64,000 bases of DNA from Psammoneis japonica. Lineage: Eukaryota. The stretch is from contig QPGO01000270.1 of the NCBI GenBank assembly GCA_008632985.1, positions 1 through 64,000 of the forward strand. The letters run 5' to 3'. The notes under the pieces are model-generated. The model did no database searches, was not told where the DNA came from, and saw only the letters and a list, made by a program, of their open reading frames with translations. A program made the translations under genes and the position numbers. The number at the start of each line of letters is the position of its first letter. Position 1 is the stretch's first letter. Below are positions 12,734-62,200 of this stretch, piece by piece.

Positions 12734-12956
12734 TTTGCCACGCACAGTTTTGTGTGCTTTGGTTCTGCGCGTTCGCGCGCAATGCAGTTTGCTTTCGAGC
12801 CACAAGGCTCACAAGAATGATGACAGCAGCCCGATTGTGCCGACTTGCACGTCTTTCGGCTCCTGTGACGGTCTCTGAGCGGAGACTCATCTGCTGTTTA
12901 GACACCAGTGAGGAGTTGTTGTTTGAATTCTTGCCATTTGCCTTCAATTTCTGTCA
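12681..12956 (+). repeat. 3' LTR of Copia element 1
   Basis: Direct repeat of 5904-6179, preceded by the PPT. Confidence 0.95.
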
Positions 12957-12961
12957 AGGAT

Positions 12962-14950: not shown

Positions 14951-15188
14951 GCAGGTGAGTTGGCAGATGGATGCAGTCAGGAATTCTCAACTCAATGAAT
15001 CAAAGGAGGTTGGTGAGACAAATTCGGAGAAAGGTGGTGCTGAAGATGATGATGCTGGCAGAGTCACAACAAATCACAGGCAAAACAACCAGTTTGGTGA
15101 GAGGGGGGAAACAGCAAAAGAAGTGAGTGGGTTGGCTGGCTCCCAAACAACAGTTGGTTCCAACAGCATCAGCGTGTGCTGAATCTTT

Positions 15189-15550
15189 TCAAGGGAAACT
15201 TGTTGTCTCCCAATCCATCACTGGAATCAGCAACAGTTGCTTCAGCACAATCGCTTTGGAGTCTCTGTGTGGCAGGCCACTGGGCTGCAAGCAAATCCAG
15301 TGCAAGCAGCCCAGTCTTCTCTGGGGAGACTTGTTGTCACCCAATCCAAGCCCAGGAATCAGCAACAGATTTTCTGGCACAGTTGCTTTGGAGCCTCTGC
15401 ATGGCAAGCCACCAGATTGCAAGCAAATTCAGTGCAAGCAGCCCAGTTTTTTCAAGGGAGACTTGTTGTCACCCAATCCAAGACCTGGTGTTAGCTGCAG
15501 TTGTTCCAACACAGTTGCTTTGGAGCCTCTGCATGGGCCACCAGACTGCA
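15189..15550. repeat. Tandem repeat, ~130-bp unit x ~2.8
   Basis: 'acttgttgtc.cccaatcca' at ~15199, 15329 and 15461. Confidence 0.85.
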
Positions 15551-16995
15551 ATGCTGCAGCAGTCCTGAGCTTGATGTTGCCTGACAATGGGCCCACATGT
15601 TGTGCACTTGTGATGCAGACATGCTCAAGGACATCCTCCATGAGTTGAGTTGATGGTTGCATCACACAGCGGCCATGGTGAAGCACGCACCTCTGAGGAG
15701 CTTTCCACCTGGACATGGCAAAGCATGGCATCACCCAGGCGGGACTTGCCAACATGCTGGAGCATCATTGGCAAGGTTGATGGAAAGACACAAAGTGACC
15801 CATGACAGCTGTGATTCCAGCACCTGCTTTCATCAAGTTCAAGCTGCCAGTGTTCGGGACTCCACTGTTGCAACACACACACCACAGAAGCAATGAAAAA
15901 AGAAGACCAGCAATTGCGCTGGTGAGCACAGCCAGAGAAACAAAGCTGGCTGAATTTGCAAGAACAACCCAGAGGACAATTGGCAGGCCAAAGAGATCAC
16001 AAACTGTCCAGTGGCGGCACAGGGCATGACATGGTGGCCAAACACACATTTGAGCCCAGCGCTTGCTTGTTTGAAGGGAAGAGGAGGGTCAATGAACAGC
16101 CCTCTCAGGTGGAAGGGAGCACTGTCAATGCACCATCTTAAGAAACACAAGGACGCCAAGATGTGCACCCTTCAATGGCTGCACCCAGATGTCGATCCTG
16201 GCTGTCATCAAACAATTGAATGGTCTGCAAAGCACCCCAGCTGCTTGTGCAACAACTGTCTTTAACTTGTGCCACTGGCAAAAAACATTGCAGCAAATAA
16301 AGCTGACAAGACTATGACAAAGCAGCCAAAAGTTTGGTGTTCTTTGTGCGGAGCCGCTTTGAAAGGCGGCAGCGGGCACCTTCTGCTCTGCTTTTTTTTC
16401 CGAACAAGCAGCTGACAGGAAAACTGGGCTGACTTTGGGCTGGAGCAACTTTTGACCAGGGTTGTCAACAAAAGCTTTGTGTCAAATGCCACACTCGTGC
16501 AGTGGCATGTTGTCACAAGTTGCACCACATCTGTCTGCTGGATGCAAGCAGAGCATCATGGTGTCCCGTGCTTTTTTTGCAAGATTTTGCACTGTGCTTT
16601 TCACTTTCTGGGAGATCTGGTGCTTTTGCCTCTTACAATTTAAAACGGAAAAGTCACACATCACCCATGAGGCGGATGGCATGGCCACAGCTGGGATCCC
16701 GGAGATGACCAGTGGATTTTGACTGCCTTGGCGAAGCGAAGCGTCTGAGGCAAGCCGAGTCGAATGACTCAATCCTCGTTTGAAATGCTGGAGGGATGGA
16801 AAATGACCCTTTTCTAGTCATTTTGGCATTTGCAACGAAATGACCGTCACCGTGGTCATTTTATTGACATTTCATTCTTCCCTCCACAAGAAAAGCCCAC
16901 AAGCTTGAGCTATCTATCACACTTCCTTTCTTTCGTTGTCGTCTTTCGAACGAATACTCTCAGAACCTCGTCTTTAGAGCCTCATCATAATATAG

Positions 16996-39499: not shown

Positions 39500-42400
39500 A
39501 CTGTAAAAGTGTGCTCATTGGGTGTGGGGATGCAAGCCATGTGATTGCGTCACCCCTGCATGGTCCGGCCATCTTCCAGACACCAGGTGTCAAGCCTGCT
39601 TGTGGTTTGTTGTTGCATGTGATGCCTGTGAACGCTGCTTCTTGTACATGCCATTGCTCTTGCGGTGGCAGTTGCCATGACAATTTGTGAGGGTCCAGAG
39701 GTCATTGTGGCCTCTTGCTGTGGCAGTTGCCATGACAATTCGTCAGGGTCCAGAGGTCATTGTGGCCATTGTCTCCACCTGTGCTGTGTCCAACATGGTG
39801 GAATGTTCTCACTCAAGAACAACAACTGTGAGTGGTTTGTGATCTCATTTGCAACACCTCCAAGCCCTTTCAATTCTTTTTTCTGTCCCATCTCACCTGA
39901 CTTTCTGACCCAACCATGCGGGCAATTCTTTCACATGCGTGGCCAAACAAAAGAAAGTGAAAAAAATGGGGGATTCCACAAACAAGGCTGGAGATTCATT
40001 GGCTAAATTTTTGTTTTCTGGGTGGTTGCTGCAGGCACAAAAGGTGAGTGCATGTTGCAGCTGCAGGGTCAGACCATGTGAAACAGAGTGGTGTGCACCA
40101 CCAAGCTCCAAGCTGAGCACCCAAGACAAGCTTTGAGCCAAGAAGCCCAGGGCACCAGCCACCACCTTCACCTCTGCTGCATCCCACAGGTGCTCTCCTT
40201 TTGCAGCATTGTGCTTGTGGATGACAAAAAGCAACAATGGAGTGGTCTGTCTTGGTCAGTGTGCAGTGTCACTGGCATCAGAGGAACAGCTTGGGACATG
40301 TGTTTGGGTCACAATCCAATGTGATTTTGTGAGAGCTCACATGCAGAGACAAGTGTGGTGACAGAAGAAAGGCAAGAGTGTTGCAACACAAGCCACACAA
40401 TGCTGCATCTGCATTCATTTGCTTTGTCAGAGCCAAAGTCTGTTGTTGAGCATCTGAGTGTGACAAAGTCATCATTGCATGGGCATGAAAGAAAATGGCA
40501 TGTGCAGCCATTCATTGCTGTGCAGAGTCACATGGGTGTCAGCCGCAGAAACAGTGCTGGATTCTGCGTGTGCGCATTGCACAGCATCAGATTTTTGCAA
40601 TGAGTGCAAGCCAACAATGAGAATCACTGTGCAAATTAATTGGCTCTCAACATGTGTGCAAGGTGTCGAACATGGCAGTGTGGGGCAGTGAGCACAGAGC
40701 ATGTGCTCACTCAGACAAAATGGCATGGGGTGGCCTCTCATTGCCAGTTGACTGTGTGCATCTGTTGCCACAGTGCTCACAGAGCACCCAGTCTCCCATC
40801 CATGCCCGCTGTGAAATTCTCACAGTCACTGCAATTTGATTGTCTTTGTGACATGGGAGACATGGCAGCAGCAGCTCAAGCTCAGGCAGCGTTGGTGGCT
40901 GGTGCCAGCAGTGGATGTTGTTGACAATGTTCTGCAGACATGCGACATTGCCAACATCAATGCAAGAGCTTGCTTGGTGTGCCATGATGGATTTGCGACT
41001 TTGGAAAATGCTGCAGTTGTGAAAGGCAACTTGGACGTGGAAGACATGGCAAACAGAGTTGGTCTTTGTGCTGACCAGGATGGGAGAGCAACTCTTGATG
41101 CTGTTCAAATTAAAATTTGCAAGCTTTGGTCTGGTGGCTCAATGACTGTCAGAAGCACAACTTTGCATTGGATGCAGCACTGTTTAATCAGGTGGCACTG
41201 GCTGGTGCTTGCCAGAAGAAATGCGCTGAAAAAGACATGTTTGAATCTGAGGTGTTGGTCAGTTCCTTGCTGGCATTCACGTCAGAGGACTTTGATGTGA
41301 TGGAGGATGCATTGTGAACCTCTTGTCACAGAAGATTGGGGTGTTGAAAGAACCACTGTGTTGTGTGACAAGGCCAGATGGCAGTTCCGGCCACATTTGC
41401 TGACGCTGTTGAGGAGTGCATGCATCAATTGAGTTTGAATGGGATGGCATTCGACCAGGACAATCTTGCTGTGTTGTGTCTGCTAAAAGCCCACCTGGTG
41501 TGCACGGAAGTGGCTGCTTGTGATTGAAGCCTGTGCAGTGCAGAGAACAGGAGGAATCTGTTTTGGGCATGAGCAGACCACTGCAATGGACAGGGAGAGC
41601 TTGGCAAGTGCACTCAGCTGGCATCAGCAAACATCAAGTTGCTGCATTGTGAGAACAAGCACCACTTGTCATTTGAACGGCACATGGCAAAACTTGCCAG
41701 TGCACACTTGCAACCTTGGCAAAGGATGAGGACCAGTGTGCTGAGACAGACAGGCAGAAAGTTGAGTTTGTGCAAAGGGCATTGAGACCAACAATGTTCT
41801 GCTGCAGGCTTGCATTCCTGTGATCAGCCAGCAATGTCCTTGTGGCTTCCCTGGCGCATGTGCACTCTTCTCTGCTGAAGTTTCTTGTTTGCATGGCGCA
41901 TCTCAGTCAGAGGTTCAGTGTCGTTTGAAGATCAACCACCAACCTTGAATCCCACTTTGTCACAAAGGACCACCTTGCTGACATGATCAAGGAGCAAGCA
42001 ACTGGAATGCCCAAAGGCACAACTTGTCTTGCATGATGATGCCTTGCAAGTTCTGGCTGGGCAAATCAAGACAGTTGCCAATGCCTCAGAGCCCGCTTGT
42101 CTTGTGGTTGCAGGGTTTCAGAAAGAACTCGGGGCAAATGTTGTTTGTCCACCCCTGCACAGGATGCAACCAAGGCTCCCACCCCTTTGGATCCAAGTCC
42201 TGCAGTTGCAAAATGCATTGTCTCAGTCTTGGATGGTCTTGCGGATCAACTTGCTGGTTCCTCTGATTTGCCTTCTTCACCGGGTGCCCTGATGTTGGGC
42301 ACAACCTCTGTGACTCCTGACAAAGCTGCCTCCTCATTGGAATGGTGCCACAACACCAAAACATTCAGAGAGACTCCTGGGCCATTTCTTTGCTCCATGG

Positions 42401-45400
42401 ACCCTGAGATGACATTGCTGTCTTTCTGAAAAGCATCCACACCCAGTGCGCCCAGGCCAACATTCCTCTTTGGGACCCTGACACACTGGTTGGGGACAAT
42501 TCAAATTTCTGCAGGCCAATGCTTGTGAGTGTGACTCACTGCCAACTGCTTTGCTGTTGAGATCCACTTGAAATTGGTGCAGGATGATGGCCTTCCCGAT
42601 CCCTGATCATGCAATGGCTGGAAAAAGATCCATGCAGTGTCTGTGGATGGTTTTGCTGTTCTTAATCACATTGCATCTCTTGGTCTTCCCAAACTGACTG
42701 GGAAGGTGGTGGATGCTCCATCTTGGAAGGGCAATCCATGTGAAATAGGTGGCCAATTTTGCTGCACATTTTGCAGTGGCTGAAGCTTTGGCTGCTAAAA
42801 CTGACCCGTCTGCACCACCAGTCTGCTCAAAATGTCACAAATCTGTGAAATTGCTGGAAGCTGTTCCCGCTGGCATGTGCAAACCAGTTCTTCTCCTCAA
42901 ACACCATTTGAGTGAACTCGGTGACTCCACACGCCACTGCTTCATGACTTGCAACTCATCTCTCTGACAACCCAGATTGACCCCAAGCATGCTGCCAATG
43001 CAGATCCTGTGGGCTCCCTGAGTGTGTTTCATGGCCGCCACCAGTGTGGCCACCAGACTCCTTTGCCCAACTGTCAGCACAACCCACTCCAACCCTGGAA
43101 AGATTTGACATGCAATGCTTGTGGTGCATGTGGACACAGTTGCTGCAATTGTCTTGTTCCAGATGGATTTGGAGCATCTCACGGCTTTGCAGCTTTTGGT
43201 CACTCTGGTTTTCTTTGCCAAGCCACAAGTGTCTGTCCCACAAATGCTTTGCAATGAGTGCTCATTGGAAAGGAACTCCCAGACAAAAGCCAAAACTGCT
43301 GCTGATGTGTTGCTTCAGACGGATTTTGAACATCTGATGCCTTTGCGTTGTCTTTCTCATAAATGTTTGCAATGACTGTGTCAGCATGATGAAAGCAAAA
43401 AGCACTGTTTTCTCAATGCACAAATGGAAACACACAACTCCCAACAATTGGCTTGCAACATCCAACTTTGCATCAAACAATGTCTGGTGTCCAGTCATCC
43501 ACACACAACAAACACAACTGCCACTCCATGCTGCTGTGGTGTCACAATGCACAACACATTTCATTCCTTGTCATCAACAGAGCAACAGGACAACATTCAT
43601 CATCAACAGCTTCATCATTTGCTGTTGCAGTGCCTTGGCTTTGCAGAGCAAGTGCCACATGCTCACTCTCATCTGTTTGGTGGCAAAGTTGCAATGTCAC
43701 AGACTCTGTGGAGCCATGCAGCACTCATCCTTCTGTTTGTTGGACCATCAACCAATCATTGTCACAGCCATGTGAGATGCCATGGTGTCTCAAAAACTGC
43801 ACAGTTTCTTGTGTGTGGCACAGTGGTTGATGGTTGACGAGGGTGCTGTTTTTGTGCTGTCACCATTTGGGGCAGGCTTCACACCAGTTTTGAAGAGCAC
43901 TTGATCTGTGAGTTTGTCTCCTCATGTTGCTCCTCCTTGAGTTTCCTGACTCCTTGTGGCTGCCTTGAGTCTTCTTAGAATTGTCCAAGGACAGGCACCT
44001 TTTTGCCTCAAGGATTGATTTTGGCATGGCATTCACTTTTTTTTTTTTTTAGCTGACCATTTGCCTCCATTTTGGCTCTTTCACCAGGCACTCCTGCTTG
44101 CATTTCAAGAAGCACTTGAAGCTTTGGCCTTGTGCATCCTTTGTCATGGTTTTTGCCAGACTTCTTCTTGAAAGCGGCATTCATTTCCTTCACCTTCTCA
44201 TGCATGTCATTTTTTTCTTTACAAGGGCACTGCACTTGAGGAACATTTCAGCACAAAAATCTTCCTTTTTTGCGGTTGGTGCCAATCAATCCATTCACAG
44301 TCATGGTGACACATGCCTTGGTTGTTGGGATGTCTTTGGCTTTAGAGAAATTCAGGCTTTTCTTTTTGATGTGCACAGATTCTTCCTTGACAGCATTGAA
44401 CTGGGCAGGGATCATGACATCTTCATCAGAATCATTGAATGACTAGAAGTTGTCATCATCTGCCTGAAGTTGAGCACTCCTCACCTCCAGAGCCATCTTG
44501 ACATGCAGAGGCATCTCCCTGCTGTTCTCAGCTGCATGTTTGGCTGCAAGTTCCTCAGCTTTTTGGGGGGCTTCAACTGCAGTGTGTGGTGCCACAATGC
44601 AGTGGACACTGTTGCAACAACACAGGCCAAAGTCTGCACCACAGAGACAGTGTGCCTGGCAATCTGATTTCTGTGATGCACCAAGCTCAAATGTTGTTAG
44701 AGGGAGAAAGCCTGCAAGGATTCTGCATCCCTTTTGCACTGAAAATTTGCAATTTTTGTTTGCAGTTCTGGAAGTGGATTGCACCCAAGGCCTGATTTGT
44801 GACTCACTTTCATGAGCCGCAAATCCAAAAAGGGTCATCGCACAAAAAATGTCAATCTCATTTGCATGCAAAGATGTGCACACACAGGTTCACATTTGCA
44901 ACTCACTGGCAAAGATGCTCTCAGCTGTGGTTGTCACCACAAAGACAAAAAGCACACCCGTCTAAACCAAACAATGTGGGAATTGCCCCGCGCACTCATG
45001 TTTTTGTTCCTTCCCCTGAACCCTTTCAGTTGTTCTTTCCCACCAAATTGCTTCATTTTCAAGGTGTTTTCCAAAAGGGTGAGGTGATTTCCCCTTGCCC
45101 TTGCCATTTTGGGGAATCCCCAAATGAGCAAAACCAAACTGAGGTGTGCAGAGAGAAAGTGCCTTGATCTCAATCTTCACACTGATCGATGATGGTGCTC
45201 CAGTCATCTCTTGGCTGGCCTGTGTCAACAAGCGGTCAATTGGATGGAAATGTGGGGTTCCTTCTGCAACATTGCAGGAATTGAAGTGTTCTTCAAATTG
45301 CTTGAAGAAAGCAAGATTGTCCCTGGGATGGCGCTCCAGATGCATGTGGGAATCCGTGTGACATGCATGTTGAGCCCGTGGAATTCTGCGCACAAGCTCC

Positions 45401-46100
45401 GCAGCAAAATTGTTCAGTGATTGACACATCAATGATTGCCAACAGAACAAGGGGCAATTTTGCAAATGCACAAACTCATCTGTGATTTAAGAAATGTCAT
45501 TTTTTGCTCATCTTGGTGCACTCTCATTGTGCTGAACAACACAGCTGGCACATTGATGTTCCCGCAAATGTGTTGAAGAATGACCAGTCTTGGCTTTCGC
45601 AAAACAGGGAGTGTGGAACAATTCTGTGAAAGAAAACATGCAAAAATGTGTGTGCAAAAATGCAAAAGAAAATGAACAACAGCTGTGTCACACATCAGCA
45701 CCGGCACACCAAGCTCTCACCTCTCGTCCAGCACACACACCACTTCAACAATGGACTTGAGCCCACCAGGCAGGATCATTGAGATCAACTGGGGACTTGA
45801 ACAACACAAAATGATCTTTGCAAAGTTCTTTGCTTGTTTGTTCTGGGCAAACAAGATGGAAAGAACAGCTTTCGGCTGACGTGCTTGGTCAGGACAATTC
45901 TTTGAACTTGCTGGAAATGTCAGAGAGAGGCTTCGTGGAAGCAAGGAATGAGATGGATTTTGGGGGAGCACAAATTTGCTGTGCCCAACAGCACCAAGTG
46001 ACAGTTGATGATGTGGTTGTTGTGCTGTTGGATGCTCGAATTGTGAGACGAGATAGAACAGATCTCTCCAAGTGGCAGCCAGAGCCACTCTCTCAGTTAT
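39500..46100. repeat. Old, heavily decayed repeat/pseudogene block depleted of both TpA and CpG
   Basis: TG/CA-saturated sequence; no family confidently recognised. Confidence 0.6.
45327..45725 (-). mobile_element. Diverged MITE relative, reverse orientation
   Basis: ctccagatgcatgtgggaatccgtgtgaca... matches the reverse complement of the MITE 3' end; tgtgtcacacatcagcac matches the 5' part. Confidence 0.7.
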
Positions 46101-46941
46101 CTCGTAGGAATGTGTGTGGTGCTTGAAGCAGCAATCAGAAACCGAACCCAACAGATGTGTAATAAGTCATTTACAAGACTTATTACAAGAGCTATAAGTC
46201 ATTGAAAAGATTCATTGATAGCGAGAATGACTTATTGATCGCTGAAAAACATGTATGTACCGGTATAAGACACGCGAGTGTTTTTACGTACTCAGACATG
46301 GCAGCCAGACATGCACGGCATACCGGTACGGTAGAGAATAGCGCTCCCATGCCATTCGAGGAGATGACAAGCAGATTGATGTTGAGAACACTATGATTCG
46401 ATACAATGACATAACGACAAGGATGGGGCTGAGAACCCGAGTGTCATTGTCGATGAGGGTAGAATTTGAGAACGCAAGTGTCAACGATCCCATAAAAACA
46501 AAGCATAAGCAATGCTCACTTTCAAAACATCAAAGGTGAGCCCTCTTTCCACAGCGTAGCAATAACAATCCTTGATGATACCCCCGCACTCCTTTCTAGA
46601 GCCAGTCCAGTGCTGCATGGATGGAGGAAAATCATTTTTTTCTCAGAAAAGCAGGCGGCGTCGCATCTCTTTCCATGTGCAGGATGCCCGGCTTCTCATC
46701 ATTTTGTCTTTCGAACATGATACGCTCTCTCATAATGTGTTGCTGTTCTTCCTCCAAATGCTATACACACTCACATAATCGATAAACAGGGAGATTCGAC
46801 AAGCAGAACTAGGCGAAAGTTTCAATTGTATACAAGGCAACCAACCCTAACTCTCACTTCTTCAGGTTCTCACAAAGTTCACGTCTCATAGCAAGGTCCC
46901 AAGACGCTTAGTCTCATACTCAACTCTCTCCGAACACACCC

Positions 46942-48337
46942 ATGAAAGGCAAGAAGGCTATCCTCGAGCTTTTGCTCATTCTCGTGGCTGCGTCCATCCA
47001 GGATGCCGGCGGTGAGTGAGAAGACGATTGCTGAGAATCCTCTTTCGACGCGACTACTTGCGAACCCCTTCCAACTACATGATGATTGGGAGATCAGAGA
47101 TGAAGACTTTTGTATGCTTACTCGTGTCTTTTTCTTTCCAATGCATCTGCAGGCCAGGTGCTTGCCCCGAAATCATTTCTCGAGGGTCCAGTCCATCACA
47201 GTCTCCGAGGCGAGGTAAGCCCGTGGATGGCTTGAACCAGGTCTGGCTGACACGAACACCCGATTGATTGCTGTTTTCGTTTCGTCCTTGCATCCCAAGA
47301 CGACGAATATTGACGACAACAAGGAGGAACACCGCTCCTTGGCTGTACCCCCTGGCACTGTGTACAGCTTTACCTTGGTCAATGCCGACACCAATACCGA
47401 CATTGGTCCACTGGAAGACGGTGACATTATCAACTTGGCCGAAGTAGGCACGAAACTCAACGTCCGTGCCAATGTGGACACCACTTTAGGTATTGATGGC
47501 GGCTCTGTGGAGTTTGATCTGAACGGCATTCTTCGCATTGAAAATATGAAGCCCTACGCTCTCTTTGGCGACGACCATGGAAATTACCACCCGGGAACCT
47601 TTCCTCTCGGTGAGAGCAACTTGAAGGCAACGTACTTTGCATTTGACGATGCCATGGGCGGCTCTGGAAGTACGTTGGAAATTTCCCTTTCCACTATTCA
47701 GGGAGCCAAGTGCAACGCCGAAATCATCGATTTTACCACGACAGGAGGCGGCGCCCCCCTTCCAGCAGGCACATACGTGAATGCGGACTGGGCTGCGCAA
47801 GGCTTAAAAGAGGTGTACGCATCCCTATCTCCAGGTAGTGGATTTGGGCCCCCAGTGCCAAGTTCACCGCCTCCGCCTCAGTACCCTCATGGTGCACCGC
47901 GCATCCTTGACACCAGATTCCCTGGAGCCAATCCTGACCTGGGCAGTCCTAACGCGGCCTTTGGCGGTCCCGGTGTTGGATTGGGCGGAGCAGGGCCCGG
48001 ACCAGGTGAAAATCGCTTTTCTCAAGGCAACGTGCTCATCGTTCAAGAAGCGCCCGGGGTCGACAATAGTGCTTCATCTCCATTTTTTGTCTTTGTCTTT
48101 GACAAGCCAGTCAAGTTACACTCCATTGTTCTCATGGGCGGCGGAGACCGCCGAGGGCCGCAGATCGTTATCCGTAAAACTTTTCCTGGGCATGCTCCAC
48201 AGGTTTTGGAATACGGTCACGGTTATGGCGACAATTCTGTGGACCCTCTTGATTTTGGAGATGGAGTCCAGGTCCAAGAGCTCAACATTATTTTCCCTGA
48301 CCCTGGCGCCGTGTCGAAACTCGTTTACTGCCGTTAG
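46942..48337 (+). CDS. Secreted two-module protein; introns 47012-47152 and 47215-47299
   Basis: Signal peptide; in-frame GT-AG splicing; module SFTLVNADTN..I...GSVEF.LNG..RIEN..PYALFGD; module NPDLGSPN..FGGPGVG.GG...GNVLIVQE. Confidence 0.8.
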
Positions 48338-49048
48338 GGCGAATGAGTGGACGAAGAACCGAAGGCGACATTTAGCTTACGCATCATGAGAATCGTTGTC
48401 GAGAAAATACTATGCCATTGAAAAAAAAGAAAAATTAGCTAGTCAAGTAGTCTTCGGTAAGAATGGTAGAACAAAAGAACCGTAAGTTTCAAAGAATATG
48501 TTCGAGACTCGATCAGAGACCGACTGAATGGTGCTTGGCAAGCGTGGACGATCGAAAGGCATCCGATTGCTTGTCACAGCCATGGGAAATGGTAGTCGAT
48601 ATGCCAACCTTTATTGAAATAGCTGCGGTACTCTTGCGAGATGGTGTTCTCCCGCATCACCAGCACTTGCATAGTTATTATAGGCTGGATACTCAGCACT
48701 CCCATCAACACTTTCACGTTCATCCAGCCTAGTGTGGGGAATTTCTTTTGTGTAATATCAGTGTATAAGTACAAGCTTAGCACACTGACCTTGGTAGTTT
48801 GCCCGCCTTGACAGATTGATTCACAACCAAGACAGTGCATCTCAAGCTGCCTCTCTTTTAAAAAGCCTTGTCTTGATTTATTTGGTGTGGGAAAGTATCG
48901 TACCACTGGAAGGAGAAAGCCAATTCAAGTGTACATTTGTTTGTTCCACAGAAACTTGCGTACAGTTTATGATGATCAAATGTTACATAAGGCATGAATT
49001 TATACAATATATGCAAAGAATGCAGTCAATCCTGATCGGATGATATTC

Positions 49049-50335
49049 CTATTCTGTCTTTTTCTTCTTTGCTGCCGAGGCCTCAGCTCCGGCAGCCATT
49101 GCAGCTTTCGCCGATAACTTCTTCTTTTTTCGCTTCGACACTGGCACAAGACAAGGGTTGTTGAGTAAGTCGGGACGAACCATGGTCGGATTTCGGCGCA
49201 GCAGCTCAAAGGAATTGTTGAGATTGTTCAAGCTCCGGTAGTTGATAGAAGTCTTGTAAGACTACCTCGCAAATTCATGTCGTCTCTATACCAGCTATAA
49301 GTGACTCCTGCTGTGTCAAGAAATGGAGGAAACCTCTCTTTTGCCTCAAACGATTCCAGGACTTGCGGGTTTGAATGAACCAAATCGCGGATAACGGGTT
49401 CCCATTGAAAACCCAGACGCAGGGCCGAAAAGATTGGGTTTGAGCCTTTTGTTATCGTCTTGTTCAACATATTTTTCGGGCAGTACTGCATGAAGGTTTT
49501 CCACTTTGTCTCAAGATCCTCGCACTCTGTCAGACAATATAAAACGCAGCAAGTCACAGAATTTGTGTCACACAATTTTTCGTGGTCATATGGTACGTTC
49601 CAATACCTCCCTCCCTTTCTCTTCTTCTGTAGACATTTCGCCATAACTTTGAGATAACGGTAGAACAGCATGAATCTCTCGTGATTCAGGTTTTTGAACG
49701 AAATATATACAAGCGGTTCAGCATCATTCTCTTCTTCGTCGTCGTCGTCTTCGAAAAAGCTTTCCGTAAATATAGAATCTAGCTCTTCATCCTCCCGCAC
49801 ACGCTTGAGCGCATACATGAGAACTTTTGCCGGAAGGGGCTGTTCGCCAGAGAAATTTTGTGCGACTACCCGCTCCACGGCTGGTGGGCACGCATTAAGT
49901 GTTGTCTTGATTTGCTCACTTTCTGGATGGGCATTCTCAATAAAAAAATTGATTAGAGAATCAGCATGTCCGTCGCATGGCTCGAGTGCCATCTTCCAAT
50001 CCCGGTCTGCTCTGACACGAAGCATCATCTCCAAAATACGCGGCGAAATTTTTGCCGGTTCAGGGTGCATTGACATCATCCAATGAAATGCACTCCAACC
50101 ATGATCAGCTTCTCGGAAATCCAGTGCATCTGGATTCAGCTCCAGCAGCCGCCAGACAACATTTGCAGGCACACCCGGATGGAGGATTGCGCAATGGAGA
50201 GGATGTGCTCCACTCAATGCACAATCTTCCATGGTGCCAGCTGCGTCAAAGTCATCCGTCAATGCCATTTCCGGCACTCGATTTAAGTCTTGCAAGAACT
50301 CTTTCCAGTGGATGTTGACTTGATGGAAAGGTTCT
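49049..50335 (-). pseudogene. 3' part of a host gene (ankyrin-like / LRRNP-type C-terminus) split by Copia element 2
   Basis: HPLHCAI, GWSAFHW, NNSFELLRRNP; reading frame continues across the TSD into 58553+; frameshift near 49270. Confidence 0.75.
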
Positions 50336-50806
50336 GGTCGAAGCTCGCGTGTCCGCGCAAGCTCCGAGTGCCTTCCAACGTGTCGACTGGATGTCCACTC
50401 CAGATCGACACCTCAGGCAGAATGCAAGCAGATGGAGTCTGCTGACGAGCAGCAGTGGGCATTTGGTCTTTCACAAAAGTGCTGCTGACCAAATTGTGAG
50501 CTGCCTGGACTGAATCTGCTGAATGCACCCAAACAGAGGTTGATCCGCAGGCTTGTGCTAGAGACCAGCACAAACCTCAGGGTCAACCACATTCACAGCA
50601 ATCATCCAAACACTGCCGAACCGATCTGTGGTTGGTCCAACATCTGTGCAAAGCCTGTGATCTCCAAAGCACCGCCTGTGATCCCCAAAGCACTCGGCTT
50701 GAGAATCAAGTCGACGTGGCGCGAAAAGAATTTTGACAAGAATTCCGACTGATGGAAGCACAGACACAACAGAGAATCTGGGTCGGTGGACAGATGAACC
50801 ACGACT
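50336..50806 (-). repeat. 3' LTR of Copia element 2
   Basis: Direct repeat of 58076-58547. Confidence 0.93.
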
Positions 50807-53731
50807 CTCCCTCTCATTCACAGATTCCAGCAACCAACAAGAAAATCGCAAACGAGAAAGCTCGCACAATTGGCACAAGTTCAGAGCAAAGCTCCTGCAT
50901 CTTGACCGAGCCACAACACACAACAAATGAAGGAAGCGATGCTTCCAAAGTGCTGCCACCCTTGGACCTTCAACCGGTTGTTCTCGAAGAGCTCTCGGGT
51001 CAAAGGCTTGGTGAGACAATCGGCGAGTTGCTCAGCCGATTCCACCTCAATCGCATCAAACTCATCGCAATGCGACCAGAGCCAACGCCACTTGATGAGA
51101 AAACACTTGGCATGATTGGTGATGCGGTGGTTGGCAGCCAGGCAGCAAGCGCCTTGACTGTCTTCGAACACACGCGCACGAACCAAAGTCCTGAGATCTT
51201 GGGAGATGTCCAAGGTGAAGACGATCTCAAGGAGCAGGTTCTTCAAAGGCAGAAGAGTCCGAAGAGCACAGGAGGCGGCTTGGCACTCAGCTTCGAGGGT
51301 GGAGCAGGAAACAGCCGACTGGAGCTGCGATTTCCACACCAAAGGACATCCACTGAGAGTTGTGATGTGTCCGGTGCGTGACCTCACAGAACTCGGGTCA
51401 GAATCCGCTTCGCAGCAACAGAGACCAGCAAAATCGGCATCAACCCATGAATCAAGATCCAAACAACCGGTTGGAGACAGTGGCATCCCCTGATCACGCG
51501 TCCTCTTCAAGTGGCGGACCAGAGTCTTGACGGCGGTTGCATGCGACTGTTTTGGGTTGGAGTTGAAGTGCACAACCTGACTGACGGCGAGGGAAATGTC
51601 AGGACGGGTGTTGGTGGACAGACACAGGAGCATTCCAATGACCAAGGGACAGCTCCAGTCCTCCTGCATGGGATCTCCGTCTGCATCAGTGCCGAGAGCT
51701 TGGGACACTGCAGGGAGCAAGTTCGGTTTGCTGTCAACCAAGCCGGCAGCTAACAGGATCTTGTCAATCAACCCTTTCTGCGTCAACTTGACAGCACCAT
51801 CGTCTCTCCTTTCGAACTTGACACCCAAGAACTCGGTGAAACTGCCCTCCTTTGTCAATTCAAATCCTTTCTCGCGCAGCTGAAATGTCAACTGATCAAT
51901 GGTGGACTCCTGCGCTGCACTGATCCCACAATCGTTGACATGCAGGCAGACCATGCAATCATGGTGAAGCAGGAGACATTGGTCGCACTCGCTTTGGATG
52001 AAACCCAAGTCCAAGAAGGCTTGCAGACAATGTTCGTGCCACAACTTTGGAGCCGAAGAGAGTCCACAGAGACTCTTGACGAGCTCAAGACAAGTCTTGG
52101 GTCCTTTCGTCGAGCTGAAACCTCGTGGAAGATGAGTCCAAACTGGTTCTTCCGCGGGAAGCACTGCTTGAACGAATGCGGACTGGAAATTGGCGGATGC
52201 CGCATGCCATCCAAGAATGAGACTCAATGCCAAAAACACTCGAACCGTGCTCCAGGCTGCAACCGGTGCATGAGTGTCAAACAGACTTCCTTCCTGCAGA
52301 TCGCCGCGACAACAGCAGCAAGCCTTGTGCTTCTTGATCTCGCCTGAAGGTGATCGCTTGCGACGAAATGCCCAAGTGCCGGGAAGGATCTTGGTTTGAG
52401 CATCAGACACAGGTGCCTCGACCCACGTTCCTTGATGGACAAGTGCTGCAATCTCAATCTTAGCCGCCTTCAACCACTTGACGCGATCGGAAGAGTGCAT
52501 GGCCTCGTCCCACGACAGCGTGTCCGGATCCTTGACTTTGCGCGCCGACGCCTTGTGTGCGGCAGGAGCAGTCATGGACATGTTGCAACCATGGTCAAAC
52601 TTGTGTGCATGATGGAAATCAATGAAGTGGGACAAGCATCCGTGTCCCTGAGATCCATCACATCCAAACCACTGAGGTGCAGCGCGAGTCCGGGTTGAGC
52701 AACGAACTGGGGTTGGAGAGGGGCGTTGTGCGCTGGGTGGAGCCACAGGTGGTGACTCCCTCTCTTGACCGAGATCCGAAGAAAGACTTCGAGGGGTGGG
52801 AGGCTCCCTCTGAGGACTTGGTGGGGCATTTGAGTTGGTGGCGGGTGCTCTCTCCCTCTGAGGCGAGTCTGAAGCCACGGGTTCTCAGTGGGAGACTCCA
52901 ATGGAGGCATGGACTCCACCTCAGGGACCGGGGGTTCCACAACGGGACTCGAGGGGGCTTTGGGAGAAGACACTGGTGCTTGAGCAACCGGAGGAGGGAC
53001 CTGCAAGGGTTTGGGAGGCGACCGGCGGGTGACGGTTTCGCGGATTTCCTCAGATCGGCGCTCACATTCTGGGCATTCTTGATGGATGTCGATGTCAGCC
53101 TGCTCTTCATCATCCATGGCACATTGACACACACTGTCTCTGAAAAGAGACGTCCATTCCAGAGACCCAACGGCAGGTGACGAGCTGGCATCGGCAGGAA
53201 CCATCGCAAACCAACCATCAAAAACGACATGGAATTGTGGAGTGATGGCTCCTGTTTCAAGACTCAAGACTGGCGGGACTGACGAGGCATGCTCGGGGCT
53301 GAGTCCCACACAGACATGCCGACTCGCGTGGGGTTTCCACTTCGGCAGTTTCTTTCCATCGGCGAGTGTTTTGTCAAGAACGCAAACAGGGCACCCCCAA
53401 ACATGACAATCCTGGAACCGAGAGTGAGGATTGCGCGTCTGGGTGAACACATCCTGTGGACTTAGACCCGCAGATGGGTCTGGCATCGCATCACAAAGCA
53501 TGACAGCGTGGTCCACAGCCAAAGGCCAAAGAGTGGCATCCGCAACATCAGGCCAATGGATCGCCGCATGCAACATCATGCTTCTCGCGATCGACATTGT
53601 AGTGTGCATTGCTTGTTCACAAACTCCATTGTGATGGTGAGCTCCTGCACCGGCATGCTTCGAAACTTGAGCAAAAGATTCCAAGTGAACCCTGAAATTG
53701 GCCAACGTGAACGCCTTTCCGTTGTCGCTCA

Positions 53732-54127
53732 GACGCGTTCCAGCCCTGGGTGGGAGCTCGTAGCACTGACGTGTGACACAAACAATTTTTATCATCCGTC
53801 GCATGTTTCGCACACAGATTTCTACGTGTGGCATTTTAAAAAAATTGTCCAGACTCGCTGTTTTGCGAAGCCCCAGACGTTTCATACAATGAATTTATAG
53901 AAACAACAATGCGCCAGCCACATTCTTCAATGTCTGAAGAATGTAACTGGCTAAGTAAAAAATGATGCACTTCAATCATGGGCGAGTTTGTGCGTTCGCA
54001 AAATTGCCTCATTTTCTGTTGGCGATCATTGACATTTTAATTGCCGCGTGATTTTAGTGCAGAGCTCGCACGCAGAATTCTGCGGGCCCAATGTCACACG
54101 GATTCCCACCTGCGTCTGGAACGCGTC
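53732..54127 (+). mobile_element. Full-length MITE (396 bp) inserted in the Copia-2 integrase
   Basis: Perfect TIRs, TSD CTCA; removal restores PQECLSDNGKAF. Confidence 0.95.
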
Positions 54128-57100
54128 CTCAGACATTCTTGGGGAACAACGCCATGATCGTGACAATGGGCCTCAAACACGTTCTTGGCCGTCAAAGTCT
54201 CATGGGCATTGAGGTGAGTTTGATGTTGAACGTTGATGTAACCGGATGCATGATCCACAAAGATTGCTCTGCCCGAGTGCTGATGTTTTGTGCTCTCCTT
54301 TCCAAAAGCATGTTTCAGACAACCACGAGTGGAACAGACAAAATGATCAACCGAAACTCGTTGACCGGGGAACAGTTGGTCCTTCTTCAAGGCACCAGCT
54401 CGATCTTTGACAACACGAGAAGTCTTTCTGGGGCCAGGACGGCGTTTTTGTTTCCCACATTGGCGTGCGGCACAAAGGGGCGGACGATCGACACGACAAG
54501 CGCGTTCATGCAAACGACGGGCACCCTGAGAGTGGGACAGAGCTCCCACACGCATCAAGAATTGCACCTTTTGAAAGCTCAGATGCCCGAGACGAAAGTG
54601 CCAATGCAGTGGCTCCTTTTCGGCAGGTGAGACATTGTGATTGTGTTCCACAATCGTCGACAACGTCAAGTGAAACTCCTCACAAATTCGTTGACTTGCT
54701 TGATTCGCGTAGGCCCATCCAGCCGGTGGGTTAGTTGAAGGTTCAATCAACACTTCAACACCTCGCCTGTGTCCTTGTTTGCGATTCTTGGATCCACTGA
54801 GGATGGCACGGTCCGATGGCAGTTCGATGGACTCATCCGGGTGCATCTGCAAGAGACTGGTCGTGCTCAAGAGACGGGCCTTGGACTTGGGGACGTAGCA
54901 GGCCGGAACCTTCAGAGTCCGAAGCACCCCAGTGACATCAACAAAAGACCAAGCGACGTGTCCAATGCCTGCCACATGGAGGCCCTTTGCGACACCTTGG
55001 AGCCGGACAGCGACAGGTGGTTTCTCGAGGGGCCCGACGAAGTCGTCCTTGCAAGGTGAGACCAATGCGCTTGCGCCTTGGTCCCAAATGACCGGGAAAG
55101 TGTGCTCTTTGACCACTTCCTTTGTCTCCTCAGGACTCGTGAACGCCGCCTTGAGAGTGCCAGCGACAGAAAGTAGAGGTGACGGGACGTCAGCATTGGC
55201 AAGACAAGCCCTGGCTGCTGGGGAGCAGACAGCATCAAGCTGGGAGCGCGTCAAACCGTGCGCAGCGTTCGAACCAACAGGGCGACACGTGGGTGTGTTG
55301 AGGTTCCGACAACCTTGATGACAAATGTTGGGACCCCTTTTTAGAGCAGTGCTCTTGTGACGTCTGGCACCCTTGGGACGAACGGCTTCTCCCTCTCGAC
55401 CGAGGAGAGGACGTGCGCGCGTGAAGGTGAGTGACCGCTCAAAGGCCTTGACCTCCTCACTGAGGTCGTGCAACTGATTGCGCTGCCGCTGCTTAACATC
55501 AGGCGCCCCACGGGCACGTTGGAAGAGAGAGGGATGCCTGGGTGGAGTGCGGCGGCGTCCGTGGCGAGACTGAAGCTCCCGTGCAGGCGACGATGCCCCC
55601 AACGTTCGTGGTGCTTGGAGAACTTGGTTCCTTGGCGTGCAGCCCAGCGGGGAGGAGGGGGTGGAGAAGGAGCATGCAGGGCTTCGGCACGAGCATCACG
55701 CTCAAACTTAGACGGCAAAAATGCAGCCACTAGAAGCAGAAGGAACCAGATGGCGGGCAAAGGATAGAGACGCCAATGTGACGAGACGTGCGACGCAATG
55801 ACCGTCACGAACCAGATCATGGCGTCGACTCCAGCAATCCACCAGTCGGCCGGAAGCTGAGAACACCAACATCCCAAGGTGGCACAGAGCAGCGGAGATG
55901 CAAAGGGGTGGATCAAGGCAAGTGCAACCTGAGACAGTCCAAGCAGTGCATCCTTGAATCCCAACTCAAAGTCGAATTCCGCGTGCCACACCCCAGGATC
56001 CAGGAAGAGGGTGTTGGCCTGCTGAGTCGGCGCAGGAGGTGACTCATCCTTCTGCCCATGCTTGGCAGTGCCGTGAGTGGTTGACCAACGATGGCACTTG
56101 GCACACCAGTGCCAAGTCTTGCCCTGAGCAACCTTGGACTCAGATTGTCCGGGACGAGGCGCGACCTTCTTCCAGTTGCACATGACGCCACCATTGCCAT
56201 TGCCTCCGTTGCCACCTTGACTCCCGTTGCCACCGGAGCGGTTCCTGCCCCTTCCTCCTTGTCCTCCACCATTGTGCCCAGGGTTTGAGCCGCCTTGGTT
56301 GTTTCCAGCACCCTCACTGGACTTGTTGGGACAGTCACGTGCCCAGTGTCCGAGCTTGTCGCAGTTGTTGCACGGAGAGTTTTCCGGAGTCTTCTTGCGG
56401 GGAGCAGCCGTCTGCTGGAAGAGAGCATTGAACTGGGCCTGAGTGAGTGGAACTCCAACCGTTTGACAAGTGGCTGAGGGGTCAAGTGCCAGGTTTCCAA
56501 AGGCTCTGGGAATGGCTTTGGAGTCTGTCGCGTGCTTGACAGGATCCCACTGCGCGTTGTTCTTGAACAAGCAGCAGCGGTCCAGGATCTTTCCAATGAC
56601 TTGAGAGCAAGCAAGGTTCTTGGACGCAAGGTGTCGTTTCGTGTCCGTCTTAGACTTGTGCGCCATCTCAACAAGTGCCTCGCTCAAATTCTCTTTCACA
56701 GTGCGAAGGGCATGCTTGAACTGCTGACCGTTTTTGCCATCCCCGCCAGCTTCCAGGCAAGTGTTGACCAAGGCAAGCGTTGGCTTGTGGTCGCACTGAC
56801 CCACAACATCTAACTCTTGGGCCGTGGTCTTGAACTCGCATGGGAGCTGGGAGAGATCCTGACCGGTGAACTGGGAGGGCTTGAGTTCCTCCAGCTGCTT
56901 TTCGAGCTGCTTGAAGCGTTCGATGGACGTGCTCTGGAGGATCACGACGAGAGCTGTCCAGACTTTCGGAAAGCAATCCGACTCTTCCGTCTCCAGATCC
57001 AGCTGCACGGCCAGGCTAGCCTCCAAGGAGTTCTTAAGAAACTCAGCAGCATCCCTGTCATTGGATGAATCGCAGGAGTCACACTTGGCGAGTTGAGGTG

Positions 57101-58075
57101 CGACAAGATGGGCGACACTCGATTTGGAATGCCGAGGATGTCCTTCAACGCAAGACGTCACAGAAGTTGAGTCCTCGGGGTCCTGCAGGCAAGTTGCCGC
57201 ATCCAAACCGCAGTCCTTGAGATGCTTCATCACCTTCTTCTCAAAGGTTGCAAGATCTCCCTTCTTGTCAAACTTGGTTGAAAGTCCGGCAACGCGGCAG
57301 GCCTTGCTCTTCTGGGCAGAAGAAACATGGTGGGAGCGACACTGGTTTGGTGACATTGGACTGGAGTTGGGAGTTTCCAATCCGGACCAGTCAGCCTTGG
57401 GTTTCCCACCGGTCCAAGCAACTTTCTCAGTGGAACCAATGGAGACAACCCCACCCATCTTAGGAGCCTTGGGTTTGTAGACTTTCGTCTTCGGCATCGC
57501 CACGGTTACCATGGCAGCCACAGCCTGAACGGTGCGGCGCTCGTCTTCCGACATGCGGGAGCCTGCAGTGGGCTCGTCATCATCATCGTCCGAGTCATCA
57601 TCTGAATTGTCCGGGCGAAGTTCCAAGGGCAGAACAGGCTCATCGTCTGGGTCGTTGTGGTCCTGAGGTGGTGGATTATCCCCCGGTGGAGGTTGGTCCT
57701 CAGGAGGCTGATCCTTGAACACTTCGGGGTCGTCAGCCATGTCCGACAGCACGCTTGAAGCTGTCAAGTCAGACCAATCGTCTGGGACATTCTCAATCAA
57801 AGAGTGCGAGCTCGGAGAACTCTCTTGGGTCTCAGGAGGGCCGCTGAGTGGAGTGGGACCTGAGATGGTGCACGTGCAAAATCAACAACAAACCTTCTGG
57901 CGGAACCAGCTGTTCAGCTGATGGAGTCAGTCGCAGTGCTTGACATCAAGAGCACGGAGCGCAGCCAATGAGGAGCGCTGATGGCATCCGAGCCATTGAC
58001 AGGGTTGCTCTGGTTTGGTCATCCCCAACCGGAAGCGCAGAACGTGCCAAGTTACCCTAATTGGGCGAACTGGCC

Positions 58076-58547
58076 AGTCGAAGCTCACGTGTCCGCGCAA
58101 GCTCCGAGTGCCTTCCCAACGCATCGACTGGATGTCCACTCCAGATCGACACCTCAGGCAGAACACAAGCAGATGGAATCCACCAACGAGCAGTGACGAG
58201 TGTTTGGTCTTTCACAAAAGTGCTGCTGACCAAATTACAAGCCACCTGGACTGAATCTGCTGAATGCACCCAAACAGAGGTTGATCCGCAGGCTTGCACT
58301 AGAGACCAGTGCAAACTTCAGGGTTGACCACATTCACAACAATCATCCAAACACTGCTGAACCGATCTGTGGTTGGCCCAACATCTGTGCAAAGCCTGTG
58401 ATCTCCAAAGCACCGCCCATGATCCCCAAAGCATTTGGCTTGAGAATCAAGTTGATGTGGCGCGAAAAGAATTTCGACAAGAATTCCGACTGACAGAAGC
58501 ACAGATGCAACAGAGAATCTGGGTTGGTGGACAGATGAACCACGACT
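58076..58547 (-). repeat. 5' LTR of Copia element 2
   Basis: agtcg...cgact; direct repeat of 50336-50806. Confidence 0.93.
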
Positions 58548-58552
58548 GTTCT

Positions 58553-59039
58553 TGAAACAATTCTCCGAAATGTTCCGCAAAGAGCTCCTCTGGCGACAGA
58601 GACTTGACCCTGCATTTGGGTGCAGAGTGTTTGGACATGTGTTCGCCTTCGTCATCTGTTTCACAATGGACACAATGCATCCACTTTTGCTTTTCCTCCA
58701 CACACTCGAATCGAGCAACTTTTGCCTCGCACAGTCCAGGCATGTTGGTTGCGGGGTCGATGAAACTTTTGGAGATCTTGGCACCAATGGCAGCTTCTGT
58801 TGTGGCAGTGGGTTGTCCTCCTCCAACTCTTCTTTGGTCTTGTCATCAGCACCCACATCATGATTCCTGCTGCTGCTGCTCAAACTTTTTGCTGCCTTGG
58901 CATTCTTCTGTGGAGGAGGCGCCTTTTTTGTTCATGATGACGCTTCTTTGGCAGCTTTCGCATTTTCATCTAAAGGCGGTGGTGGTTGATGTGCTTGTTC
59001 CTCCATCGATCTCTTCAGAGCGACGTGAAGCGAGCTCAT
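58553..59039 (-). pseudogene. 5' part of the split host gene, with a Tudor-like domain
   Basis: IGAKISKSF...LCEAKV...MHCVHCETDDEGE (Tyr replaced by Cys/His); joins as FGELFQE|PFHQVNIHWKEFLQDL. Confidence 0.7.
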
Positions 59040-59206
59040 TGTAGAAGCACTTCAAATCACAAAAAGTGAAGCAAGCAACAAGTGACACAGCTTGTCATCG
59101 CTCATCGCCACAGCAAATGACGGGGCGGCGGGGTGTGGGGTCTTCACGGTGAAAGGTGAAAGGGAAGAGAGAAACTGCGTAAAATCCCTCTCTGCTGGAG
59201 AGAGCA

Positions 59207-62200
59207 GCCAGTGGTCATCCGCACAGATGCCACATTTCAACCAAATGTGGTGTCAATGTGGCACCCCCATCCAAAACACCAGAACAATGCTTCATGTGCT
59301 CCCCAAGTCTTTTTCCGTTGACAGAAAATCATCAAACAACTCAGAGAACAGGGGCACATGCATTGCATGAGGTGTCTTTGATCGGAAGTTGCGTTGGAAG
59401 TCGTCTGAAGTTGACTGAAAAATGGCGTCTCCGAGATGCGCAAATGCGTGCTGGCACCATGAGCGGACAAGAAGCGACCACCGTCGCTGCCTCCGAGAGT
59501 GTCTCCCCCCCCATGCAATCCATTGGTGAACATGGATCAACACCTCAAGCGTCCACTGGAGTGGTTGAAAGAGCTCAAATGGACCCAGCTCCACAACTAA
59601 ATGCTGCTGCTGCTGCTGAGACTCCTGCAAACAATGTTGAAGGCACTCCCGTGCAGCCTCCTCAAGCATCTGACCAAGGGAGCGGCAGAAGCAATGACTC
59701 TGGATCACAGAAACCGCCCCTGACAACACCTCGAACGAAAAGGAAGACAGGTTCGAAAAAGCGAATGAAAATCGGCCGTCAAGCGAAAGTCAAACGAATG
59801 GACCTCTGCCACATTCTCAGTGAGGTGCAATGACAAGCAATGCCTCGCGACGCCCCCAACGGCTTTCTTTTTTTTGGAACTGTCAAGGGCGGAAATTCAA
59901 AAGTAGGTTGGGATGTTGATTTTGACACCCTTCCTGAATTGGATGAAAGAGTTTGTCATGTCACCGCTAACAAGATCACCGTCATGCAGGACTGGGAAGA
60001 GGAAAACCCCATGTCAGAACAGGAACGTAGGAGCCGCTCGAAAGATGGCGACGATGACGAACCCGCGGCAAAGAAATCAAGGAAGACTTTGGCACTTCAA
60101 TCATTGGATGAATTCTGTGAGCTTGAAGATGCAGAAGTTACTCAAAAATCCATCTTTGAAATGAGGCATGGAACCAATCCGCGATGCATTGAAAAGAAGG
60201 TTGCATGGAAGACACACGGTGAGACAGAGTGCGCAACGGAGTCTCCACTCACAGTGCCGGACCCACCTGTTGAATTAAAGGACGTGGACTTTGCCAACAA
60301 GAGCACACAAGAAAATTTCTTTGACCACGTGCTCCCGGATGTCACTGGTCACGGAAAGATTTTGGACAGATGCCTGAGTGACAGGAGAGCAAGCCATCAC
60401 ACTGCATGCCTTCAGCTTGACCGTGCTTTCCATGATCCGGATGCTGAAGATCCAGATTGGATGGCAAAGCAGTGTTGCACAGTGCTCATTGCAGCTGCTT
60501 CTACAATTGAATGCGGAGTTGAAAATCTGTGGAAGTTGGGATCTTCAGAGGGTTGCTCGTTCTACCCCGACTTTGGGCAATGTGTTGACGTGAAAACTTT
60601 CAAGTGTTTCGAAAGCGCAGCTGCATTTTGTTGGGCCGACCCACAATGCTGGTTTCATGACAAACGCGACATGCCATGGGAAGTGTTTCTGCCGGCGCTG
60701 AAAGGATTCAATGACAGGAGACGACAACTCATCAAATCCCTTGTCTTGCCCTGGGTGGGAGCTCACAGTGCTGACGTGTGACACAAACAATTTTTGTCAT
60801 CCGCAGCATGTTTCGCACGCACATTTCCACGTGTGACATCATAAAAAAATTGTCCAGACTCGCTGTTTTGCGAAGCCCCAGATGTTTCATGTGACGAATT
60901 TATAGAAACAACGATGCACCAGTTGCATTCTTGAATGTCTGAAGAATGTAACTGGCCAAGCAAAAAATGATGTGCTTCAATCATGAGCGAGTTTGTGCAT
61001 TCGCAAAATTGCCTCATTTTCTGTTGGCGATCATTGACATTTTAATTGCCGTGTGATTTTACTGTGGAGCTCGCACGCAGAATTCTACGGGCCCAATGTC
61101 ACACGGATTCCCACCTGCGTCTGGAACGCGTCACCCAAGACATCCAAGTTGGGTGGACTCCCGAATTGCACCCATGAGCCCCGCAAGCCTGTGCCTCTTG
61201 GAACGATGTTTCGAAATGGGGCCGAATGCACTGCTGGCATTCTAGTGCACAACGACCTGGTTCAGCTGCCAGAACACCAGCAAATGAAGAAGTGCCACGG
61301 TGAGCAATCCAGTCTGCCTGATGGATCAAACATTCCTGTGCATGTGGCTGAAACACTGCGGCAAGTGGAGCATGCAGGAGTGAAGGAAGGCGGTTGGGTC
61401 GGAGGCGATGCATGGTTTGGCAGTGTTGTGAGTTGCGTCAAGGTGTCAAAACGGTTCAAAGTTCACTCGACCTTCGTTGTGAAGAATGACACTTCTTTCT
61501 TTCCAAAGGCTGCCATCCACAGAGTCATGATGGCACGACACAGCAATCGTTTGGCTGGAAAGTGGGTCACGTTCTTGATGACAATCGCTGGAGTGCAGCT
61601 GATTGCCATGGGTTGCGCATGGAGCAAATCAAGTGTTGCATGTTTTATTTCAACGTGTGGACTAACCTCTCCATCGGACATGCCTCATGTGTCGAACTTC
61701 GAGAATGAGTGTGGAGAAGTGGCATCGAAGGAACTGCCATGCCCAAAACTTTGCGAATTTCTACATGAGCATCTGCCAATCATTGATGAACACAACAAAC
61801 AAAGACAAGACATTCTTGGTCTGGAGAATTCATGGCCAACACGTTGTTGCTGGTTCCGGCTTCTTGTCACCACTGTTGGAATGTCAGTTGTGGATCTTCA
61901 CCGGCTCTATCGGCACCATGACCAAACAACTCATGGGGGAGCCATGACGGCTAGAAAATTCTCAGACATGCTCTGCAAAGGCCTCAAGTGCAGGTCTGAC
62001 CGGGACCGTCTCCCTCGAACTCCACCATCCAAGCCGGCAGCGGGAACACTCAAGCAAACAACCAATGATGCTGGCAATGCAACGAGACCTCCAACAGAGA
62101 AGCAACTTCAGAGCGGGCACAATGTTGGTCAACCGCATCAACAAAATTGTTGGATGTGTCGGAAGTGCAACAAGTGCACCACAACATCATGGTGCTGTGC

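Follow-up and report, generated by a model that had tools for sequence, protein, structure and literature searches.

The window analysed here is a 64,000-bp stretch of the Psammoneis japonica assembly (GCA_008632985.1, contig QPGO01000270.1, positions 1 to 64,000 of the forward strand). It contains an LTR retrotransposon of 8,212 bp at 50336-58547, which is bounded by a 5-bp target-site duplication, GTTCT (Table 1). The duplication fits in one register only, the bases immediately outside the two identical copies being unlike (G vs. T before, and G vs. T after), and it sets the left edge of the element at 50336, as an earlier reading of the DNA letters (hereafter the sequence-only reading) had claimed. 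Three domains were identified in minus-strand frames of the decayed coding region: zf-CCHC in 55341-57881, gag_pre-integrs in 54094-55695, and RVT_2 in 50881-52884 (PF07727, E = 4.3e-26); the rve core gave no match in the frame 52572-53894. The element is a Ty1/copia retrotransposon inserted on the minus strand. It shares with typical members RVT_2, the gag/integrase/reverse transcriptase order, direct LTRs with a short (5-bp) target duplication, a polypurine tract, and TGG after the 5′ LTR, and is unlike them in its termini, which are AG...CT (in full, AGTCG...CGACT) in place of TG...CA. LTR termini are normally TG...CA. Those of Ty1 are of this type (PMC2939329). The second LTR element of the window also ends in TG...CA, and AG...CT is the form found in this copia family.

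Table 1. Coordinates of the copia element, its flanks, and the element nested within it (positions in the window).
Feature	Position	Strand	Description
Left target-site duplication, GTTCT	50331..50335		Same 5-mer at 58548-58552
Junction site	50336		G on the plus strand; twin A at 58076
3′ LTR (element sense)	50336..50806	-	471 bp; TpA o/e 0.04
Polypurine tract (putative, by position)	50807..50819	-	Reads GAATGAGAGGGAG; directly 5′ of the 3′ LTR
Decayed copia coding region	50881..57881	-	Four open frames; gag with zinc knuckle, gag_pre-integrase, RVT_2
Nested MITE	53732..54127	+	396 bp; 12-bp perfect terminal inverted repeats; CTCA duplication at 53728-31 and 54128-31
Primer-binding-site-like stretch	58062..58076	-	Reads TGGCCAGTTCGCCC; begins with the terminal T of the LTR
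5′ LTR (element sense)	58076..58547	-	472 bp; TpA o/e 0.07
Right target-site duplication, GTTCT	58548..58552		Copy of 50331-50335
Left host flank in purged domain	49955..50335		2 TpA; o/e 0.09; CpA+TpG 1.52
Right flank, purged	58553..59400		3 TpA; o/e 0.06; purge runs to the end of the window

The minus-strand location of the gag, integrase, and RVT_2 domains makes position 50336 the terminal base of the 3′ LTR, at its U5 end. The sequence-only reading, which had taken this position for the start of an LTR, misread the orientation. Position 58076 is correspondingly the last base of the 5′ LTR, adjoining the primer-binding site. On the minus strand, the polypurine run GAGAGGGAG abuts the LTR 50806-50336 on its upstream side, and the TGG-initiated stretch comes after the LTR 58547-58076; TGG is also present in related copies, as seen in the loose ends of family contigs. 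No tRNA genes were detected in the window. When read on the plus strand, the two LTRs begin with GGTCG at 50336 and AGTCG at 58076 (preceded by C at 58075), and both close with CGACT (50802-50806 and 58543-58547); in these details the earlier description of the sequence was accurate. In element sense, the 3′ LTR ends in ...CGACC followed by host AGAAC, so that 50336 contributes a C in place of T, and the 5′ LTR ends in ...CGACT followed by GGCCAG. Only termini of the A...T type can form a TpA step with a host base. By self-BLAST, no further LTR of the copia family was found in the window, and no other junction TpA is possible in the window, the second LTR element ending in TG...CA and the MITE family in G...C.

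The two copia LTRs are 90% identical. Over 471 aligned bases they differ by 45 substitutions, all of which are transitions (no transversions), and by one indel; at this density (45/471), a difference at any one site is not rare. Compared by dinucleotide, 14 steps pair CA with TG, one pairs TA with TG, and one is TA in both; for CpG, eight steps read CG vs. TG or CA, and 16 read CG in both copies. A further eight single differences lie elsewhere, the terminal site included. With ancestral TpA steps polarized from the second LTR pair and the family contigs, and not from a full phylogeny, 29 of the 45 substitutions are assigned to ancestral TpA (30 if the junction is counted), eight are of the CG type, and seven lie elsewhere. 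The 3′ LTR has 16 such putative ancestral TpA steps, of which 10 now read TG, five read CA, and one is still TA (15/16 changed). Along this LTR, the TG and CA outcomes fall into 6 runs, against 7.7 expected, and give no sign of strand-coordinated clusters.

Decay of CpG in both copies was our initial reading of the steps that differ as CA vs. TG. It was dropped because CpG decay would leave more steps altered in just one copy than are seen (14 CA/TG, against eight CG vs. another step and 16 CG/CG), because family copies retain TA at such steps, and because the second LTR pair has TA vs. TG or CA directly. At 50443-50444, for example, 12 of the family contigs listed read A at 50444 but only eight of them read C at 50443, so that at least four family copies keep TA at a step that is TG in one LTR and CA in the other. 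We favor the interpretation that the variable CA/TG steps derive from ancestral TpA, as the comparison of copies suggests.

Differences at other A sites are sparse. Outside pyrimidine-purine steps, 7/133 A sites differ between the LTRs, and in the 3′ LTR a change of A to G after a purine is seen at 6/133 A sites, with both strands counted. On the plus strand these non-TpA changes are at 50437, 50455, 50458, and 50598, three of the four following an A, and on the other strand they are at 50576 and 50617. At 50437, 50455, 50458, 50598, and 50576 the family majority, among the matches listed, has the letter of the twin LTR (at 50576, C in the 3′ LTR and T in both the twin and the family majority). 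The twin LTR carries a single non-TpA change of the A:T>G:C type, at the equivalent of 50636. The pattern hints at either a relaxed 5′-neighbor preference, with T much above A, or a second process.

In the second LTR element of the window, the LTRs are 276 bp long (5904-6179 and 12681-12956) and the target duplication is AGGAT. Its LTR pair differs by 19 substitutions, among which seven steps read TA vs. TG or CA and three read CA vs. TG; this pair is less far gone than the copia pair. Six TpA and four CpG steps that are kept in the left LTR have been lost from the right one, which adjoins the most strongly purged block of the window (13-16 kb); the decay of this element is thus one-sided.

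Loss of TpA extends well beyond the LTRs (Table 1). Over the whole window, TpA has an observed/expected ratio (o/e) of 0.25, CpA and TpG of 1.52, and CpG of 0.62, and in 1-kb steps the window resolves into purged blocks (TpA o/e 0.01-0.2; CpA+TpG 1.3-2.15) and normal blocks (TpA o/e 0.45-0.84; CpA+TpG 1.05-1.4). The body of the copia element has a TpA o/e of 0.03-0.11. The purge is also evident in the products of the reading frames, in which Tyr accounts for only 6 of 2490 residues (0.2%), against 4.5% His and 3.8% Cys; over six frames, the element has 58 TAA and TAG codons vs. 340 TGA. This erasure of TAA and TAG across 50336-58547 leaves long spurious open frames on both strands, and 32 frames of at least 100 aa were counted in the interval.

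On the left of the element, TpA is dense through 49954, with a TpA o/e of 0.58 and a CpA+TpG of 1.17 in the reference interval 46001-49954, and then occurs just twice (50037 and 50284) before the element edge. For this 381-bp flank, the Poisson probability of two or fewer TpA is 1.4e-4, and the minimum among 179 equal-sized reference windows is six. The right flank is purged as well. Since DNA on both sides of the junction is purged, the junction TpA would have sat ~380 bp inside the purged domain. At its 5′ end, an open frame at 49231-50268 (minus strand) has ~105 codons within the purge, and the rest of it lies in normal DNA; the copia element is ~65 bp upstream of the first ATG of this frame, for which no homologue was found at E ≤ 0.001 among 1415 candidates. 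The purged blocks are of two grades. Blocks 13001-16000 and 40001-46000 have lost both TpA (o/e 0.01-0.08) and CpG (0.08-0.27), and blocks 6001-13000 and 50001-58000 have lost TpA and kept CpG (0.62-0.91). The two grades fit a fast loss of TpA followed by a slower loss of CpG.

At the junction itself, the T at 50335, which ends the left copy of GTTCT, supplies the 5′ base of the proposed TpA. The identity of the two duplication copies shows that this T belongs to the host. As Logan contigs, three runs of one sample were compared with the window over 49700-51300. A contig of run X1 (record 1, 4324 nt) spans 49759-50366 with no differences, and it matches both the G and the flank, from which it follows that the G is not an assembly slip, although this run may be the assembly's own sample; GGTCG does follow the T of the duplication, as the sequence-only reading had it. 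Among the contig matches listed, neither an empty-site allele nor an A/G polymorphism at 50336 was seen. A metagenome search with the initial 21 nt of the LTR, allowing any base at one position, returned two loci, which were rejected as chance matches: both lie on unrelated GC-rich or bacterial-looking contigs that have only the 21-mer in common.

Summed contig depth is ~3300 over the LTR and 53.8 on the unique flank; this sum is not a copy number, but it suggests that the family has tens of copies. Contigs from other members of the family report on the terminal base. Five are clipped at 50337 (four in run X1 and one in run X2), their consensus ending in A, and in another three, clipped at 50360, the consensus has A before GTCGAAG; the terminal base is thus A, with C before it, in 8/8 junction contigs among the matches listed. 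Most of these appear to represent the internal side of the 5′ LTR, with sequence resembling 58050-58075, and the contig of run X2 has the appearance of host flank, so that true host junctions among the junction contigs listed number at most one or two, and none is flanked by T. A is the state expected at 50336 upon integration, because both LTR ends of a new copy share one template, and because the twin has A, the termini AGTCG...CGACT are then perfectly inverted, and all eight listed junction contigs have A. With T contributed by the host and A as the state at integration, the TpA at 50335-50336 would have been formed by integration only, and this claim of the sequence-only reading stands. 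When flank base is set against terminal base in the contigs listed, A is kept wherever C precedes it and there is no T-flanked insertion; because A is kept wherever C precedes, these contigs do not contradict the TpA reading.

The G at 50336 is best interpreted as a TpA-class change, by which the junction TpA became TpG, and we assign this reading a probability of roughly 0.8. Its membership of the TpA class is inferred from one site (n = 1), which nevertheless fits that class much better than the background class. The proposed sequence of events is as follows. A Ty1/copia element would have inserted on the minus strand, with formation of the 5-bp duplication; its A...T termini would have placed the terminal A:T beside host T:A, creating a TpA with no counterpart outside the chromosome; the element, together with ~380 bp of the host sequence on its left, would have come to lie in a domain in which TpA was rewritten, near saturation, to TpG or CpA; and the junction TpA would have changed as other TpA steps did, giving TpG on the plus strand at 50336.

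One competitor is a background or relaxed-context change of A to G that occurred after integration, had no need of the host T, and chanced on the terminal base. The non-TpA changes described above make this conceivable, since at 6/133 A sites outside pyrimidine-purine steps an A or T of the twin is replaced by G or C in this LTR, with the family majority among the matches listed siding with the twin at five of them and three of the four plus-strand cases following A. The rate of such changes, however, is ~4.5% per site, vs. ~62% for TpA to TpG in the same LTR, and the resulting likelihood ratio of 0.62/0.045, or ~14, in favor of the TpA class renders a context-free origin improbable. A G already present at integration, as a base misincorporated or added without template at the end of the cDNA plus strand and then joined by integrase, is similarly unlikely. 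Position 50336 does correspond to the 3′ end of that plus strand, templated either by the final base of U5 or by a residual tRNA nucleotide, and Ty1 cDNA ends can be error-prone or untemplated. Errors of reverse transcription are nonetheless rare per site, and the change at 50336 has the exact type and context of the local hypermutation. Furthermore, in a study of Ty1, fragments with an altered terminal dinucleotide were no longer used by integrase in vivo, and a loss of more than 100-fold in vitro is cited there (PMC2939329).

The polarity of the difference might instead be the reverse, both LTR ends having carried G and the twin having changed from G to A at 58076 through CpG>CpA decay after the C at 58075. 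CpG decay does act in the copia element, as 8/45 LTR differences are CG vs. TG or CA and, among the matches listed, the family majority at 50456 and 50734 is C where the 3′ LTR has T. This polarity is nevertheless very unlikely, given the A in 8/8 junction contigs among the matches listed; moreover, an original G would make the termini an imperfect inverted repeat, and it would cost the TGG start, which is present in all three variants at the LTR-internal junction. A TGG start is typical of tRNA-primed elements. ADAR- or APOBEC-type editing, acting on the RNA or cDNA of the element prior to integration, would match the transition-only, deaminase-like spectrum and the dependence on the nearest neighbor; a 5′-neighbor preference is typical of such deaminases, and ADAR favors 5′ U (bioRxiv 10.64898/2026.01.13.699255). 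Acting before integration on the one template of both LTRs, however, it would have left the LTRs alike and could not have produced 45 differences between them; here host flank DNA is purged as well, and in RNA or cDNA the terminal base has GG after it, not A, there being no host base to serve as context. Such editing as the source of the G at 50336 is extremely improbable.

Mutation acted on chromosomal DNA after integration. This follows from the 45 transition-only differences between the LTRs and from the purged host flank, evidence that is far firmer than the base at 50336. The sequence-only reading had drawn the same conclusion from the junction TpA; its conclusion holds, and its logic, that a context made by integration can be read only on the chromosome, is sound, but one site cannot carry the inference; the 3′ LTR also has four plus-strand A>G changes outside TpA, and an error at the cDNA end keeps a small probability. 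We regard it as likely that the mutator reads its dinucleotide in place, even where one base belongs to the host and the other to the element, and that its unit of action is the domain and not the individual element. Taken alone, the change at 50336 carries little weight, as it is one base and the LTR pair and the flank already demonstrate in-place mutation; it is probably a small corollary of a type of hypermutation that was described only recently. Its value lies in the design it suggests, namely a census of insertions, which would test in situ how the process depends on context at the edges of domains. If the reading is correct, families with A...T termini would be natural reporters, in that each insertion next to a T or A of the host would generate a TpA absent from RNA and cDNA, and a genome-wide table of junctions could give rate, strand choice, and edge behavior without experiment. 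The main interest of the locus lies in finding silent mobile DNA under TA-erasing hypermutation in an organism that is unrelated to Bigelowiella natans and is the second to show it.

Transition-only hypermutation of repeated or foreign chromosomal DNA is familiar from fungal RIP, which disables transposons and can leak into adjacent unique DNA. RIP converts C to T, mainly at CpA, and so makes TpA. The process described here resembles RIP in producing transition-only changes in repeats on the chromosome and in its apparent purpose, and is unlike it in having the reverse chemistry, with TpA destroyed and CpA and TpG created; C>T changes at CpA or CpG would raise TpA in repeats, and repeat TpA is lowered in the window. 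The closer parallel is with B. natans, in which hypermutation of TpA to TpG or CpA has been described for integrated giant-virus and virophage DNA, with RIP named as a comparison in the Discussion (Mettrop et al., bioRxiv 10.64898/2026.01.13.699255). In B. natans the changes are almost only A:T>G:C at TpA; in the copia LTRs most substitutions are assigned to ancestral TpA, with CpG-type and a few other transitions beside them, so that the changes are not strictly confined to TpA. In both cases the process acts on chromosomal DNA, and the clustered loss of TpA with a gain of CpA+TpG in mobile DNA is found here as well. According to the same preprint, TpA in the viral region of B. natans is ~1.8-fold depleted, whereas in this window its loss is near saturation (o/e 0.02-0.1); the B. 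natans signature was seen as de novo mutations in mutation-accumulation lines, whereas here it is deduced from the sequence of another organism; and here the loss of TpA is accompanied by a slower loss of CpG and some non-TpA A>G changes. The Results and Discussion of the preprint treat neither element-host junctions nor spread into flanks. The chemistry of the TpA loss in the window may be the one proposed there for B. natans, i.e., adenine deamination in DNA with a 5′-T preference (10.64898/2026.01.13.699255). Because TpA is its own reverse complement, deamination of A and a T-directed change on the other strand would leave the same sequence. In our literature search, the B. natans preprint was the only account found of such a TpA-erasing process, and nothing relevant was found on TpA in diatom transposable elements.

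The MITE nested in the integrase region of the copia element retains 12 TpA (o/e 0.42), compared with a TpA o/e of 0.03-0.11 in the copia DNA around it. Either the MITE inserted once the purge was largely over, or purging proceeds slowly or in episodes. Another seven copies of this MITE are located in the window, at ~24159, 32228, 33807, 35024, 45331 (minus strand), 60748, and 63194. Near the left end of the window, a tandem duplication with units of ~190-200 bp that are 84-89% identical occupies 1234-1810, in a block of normal TpA.
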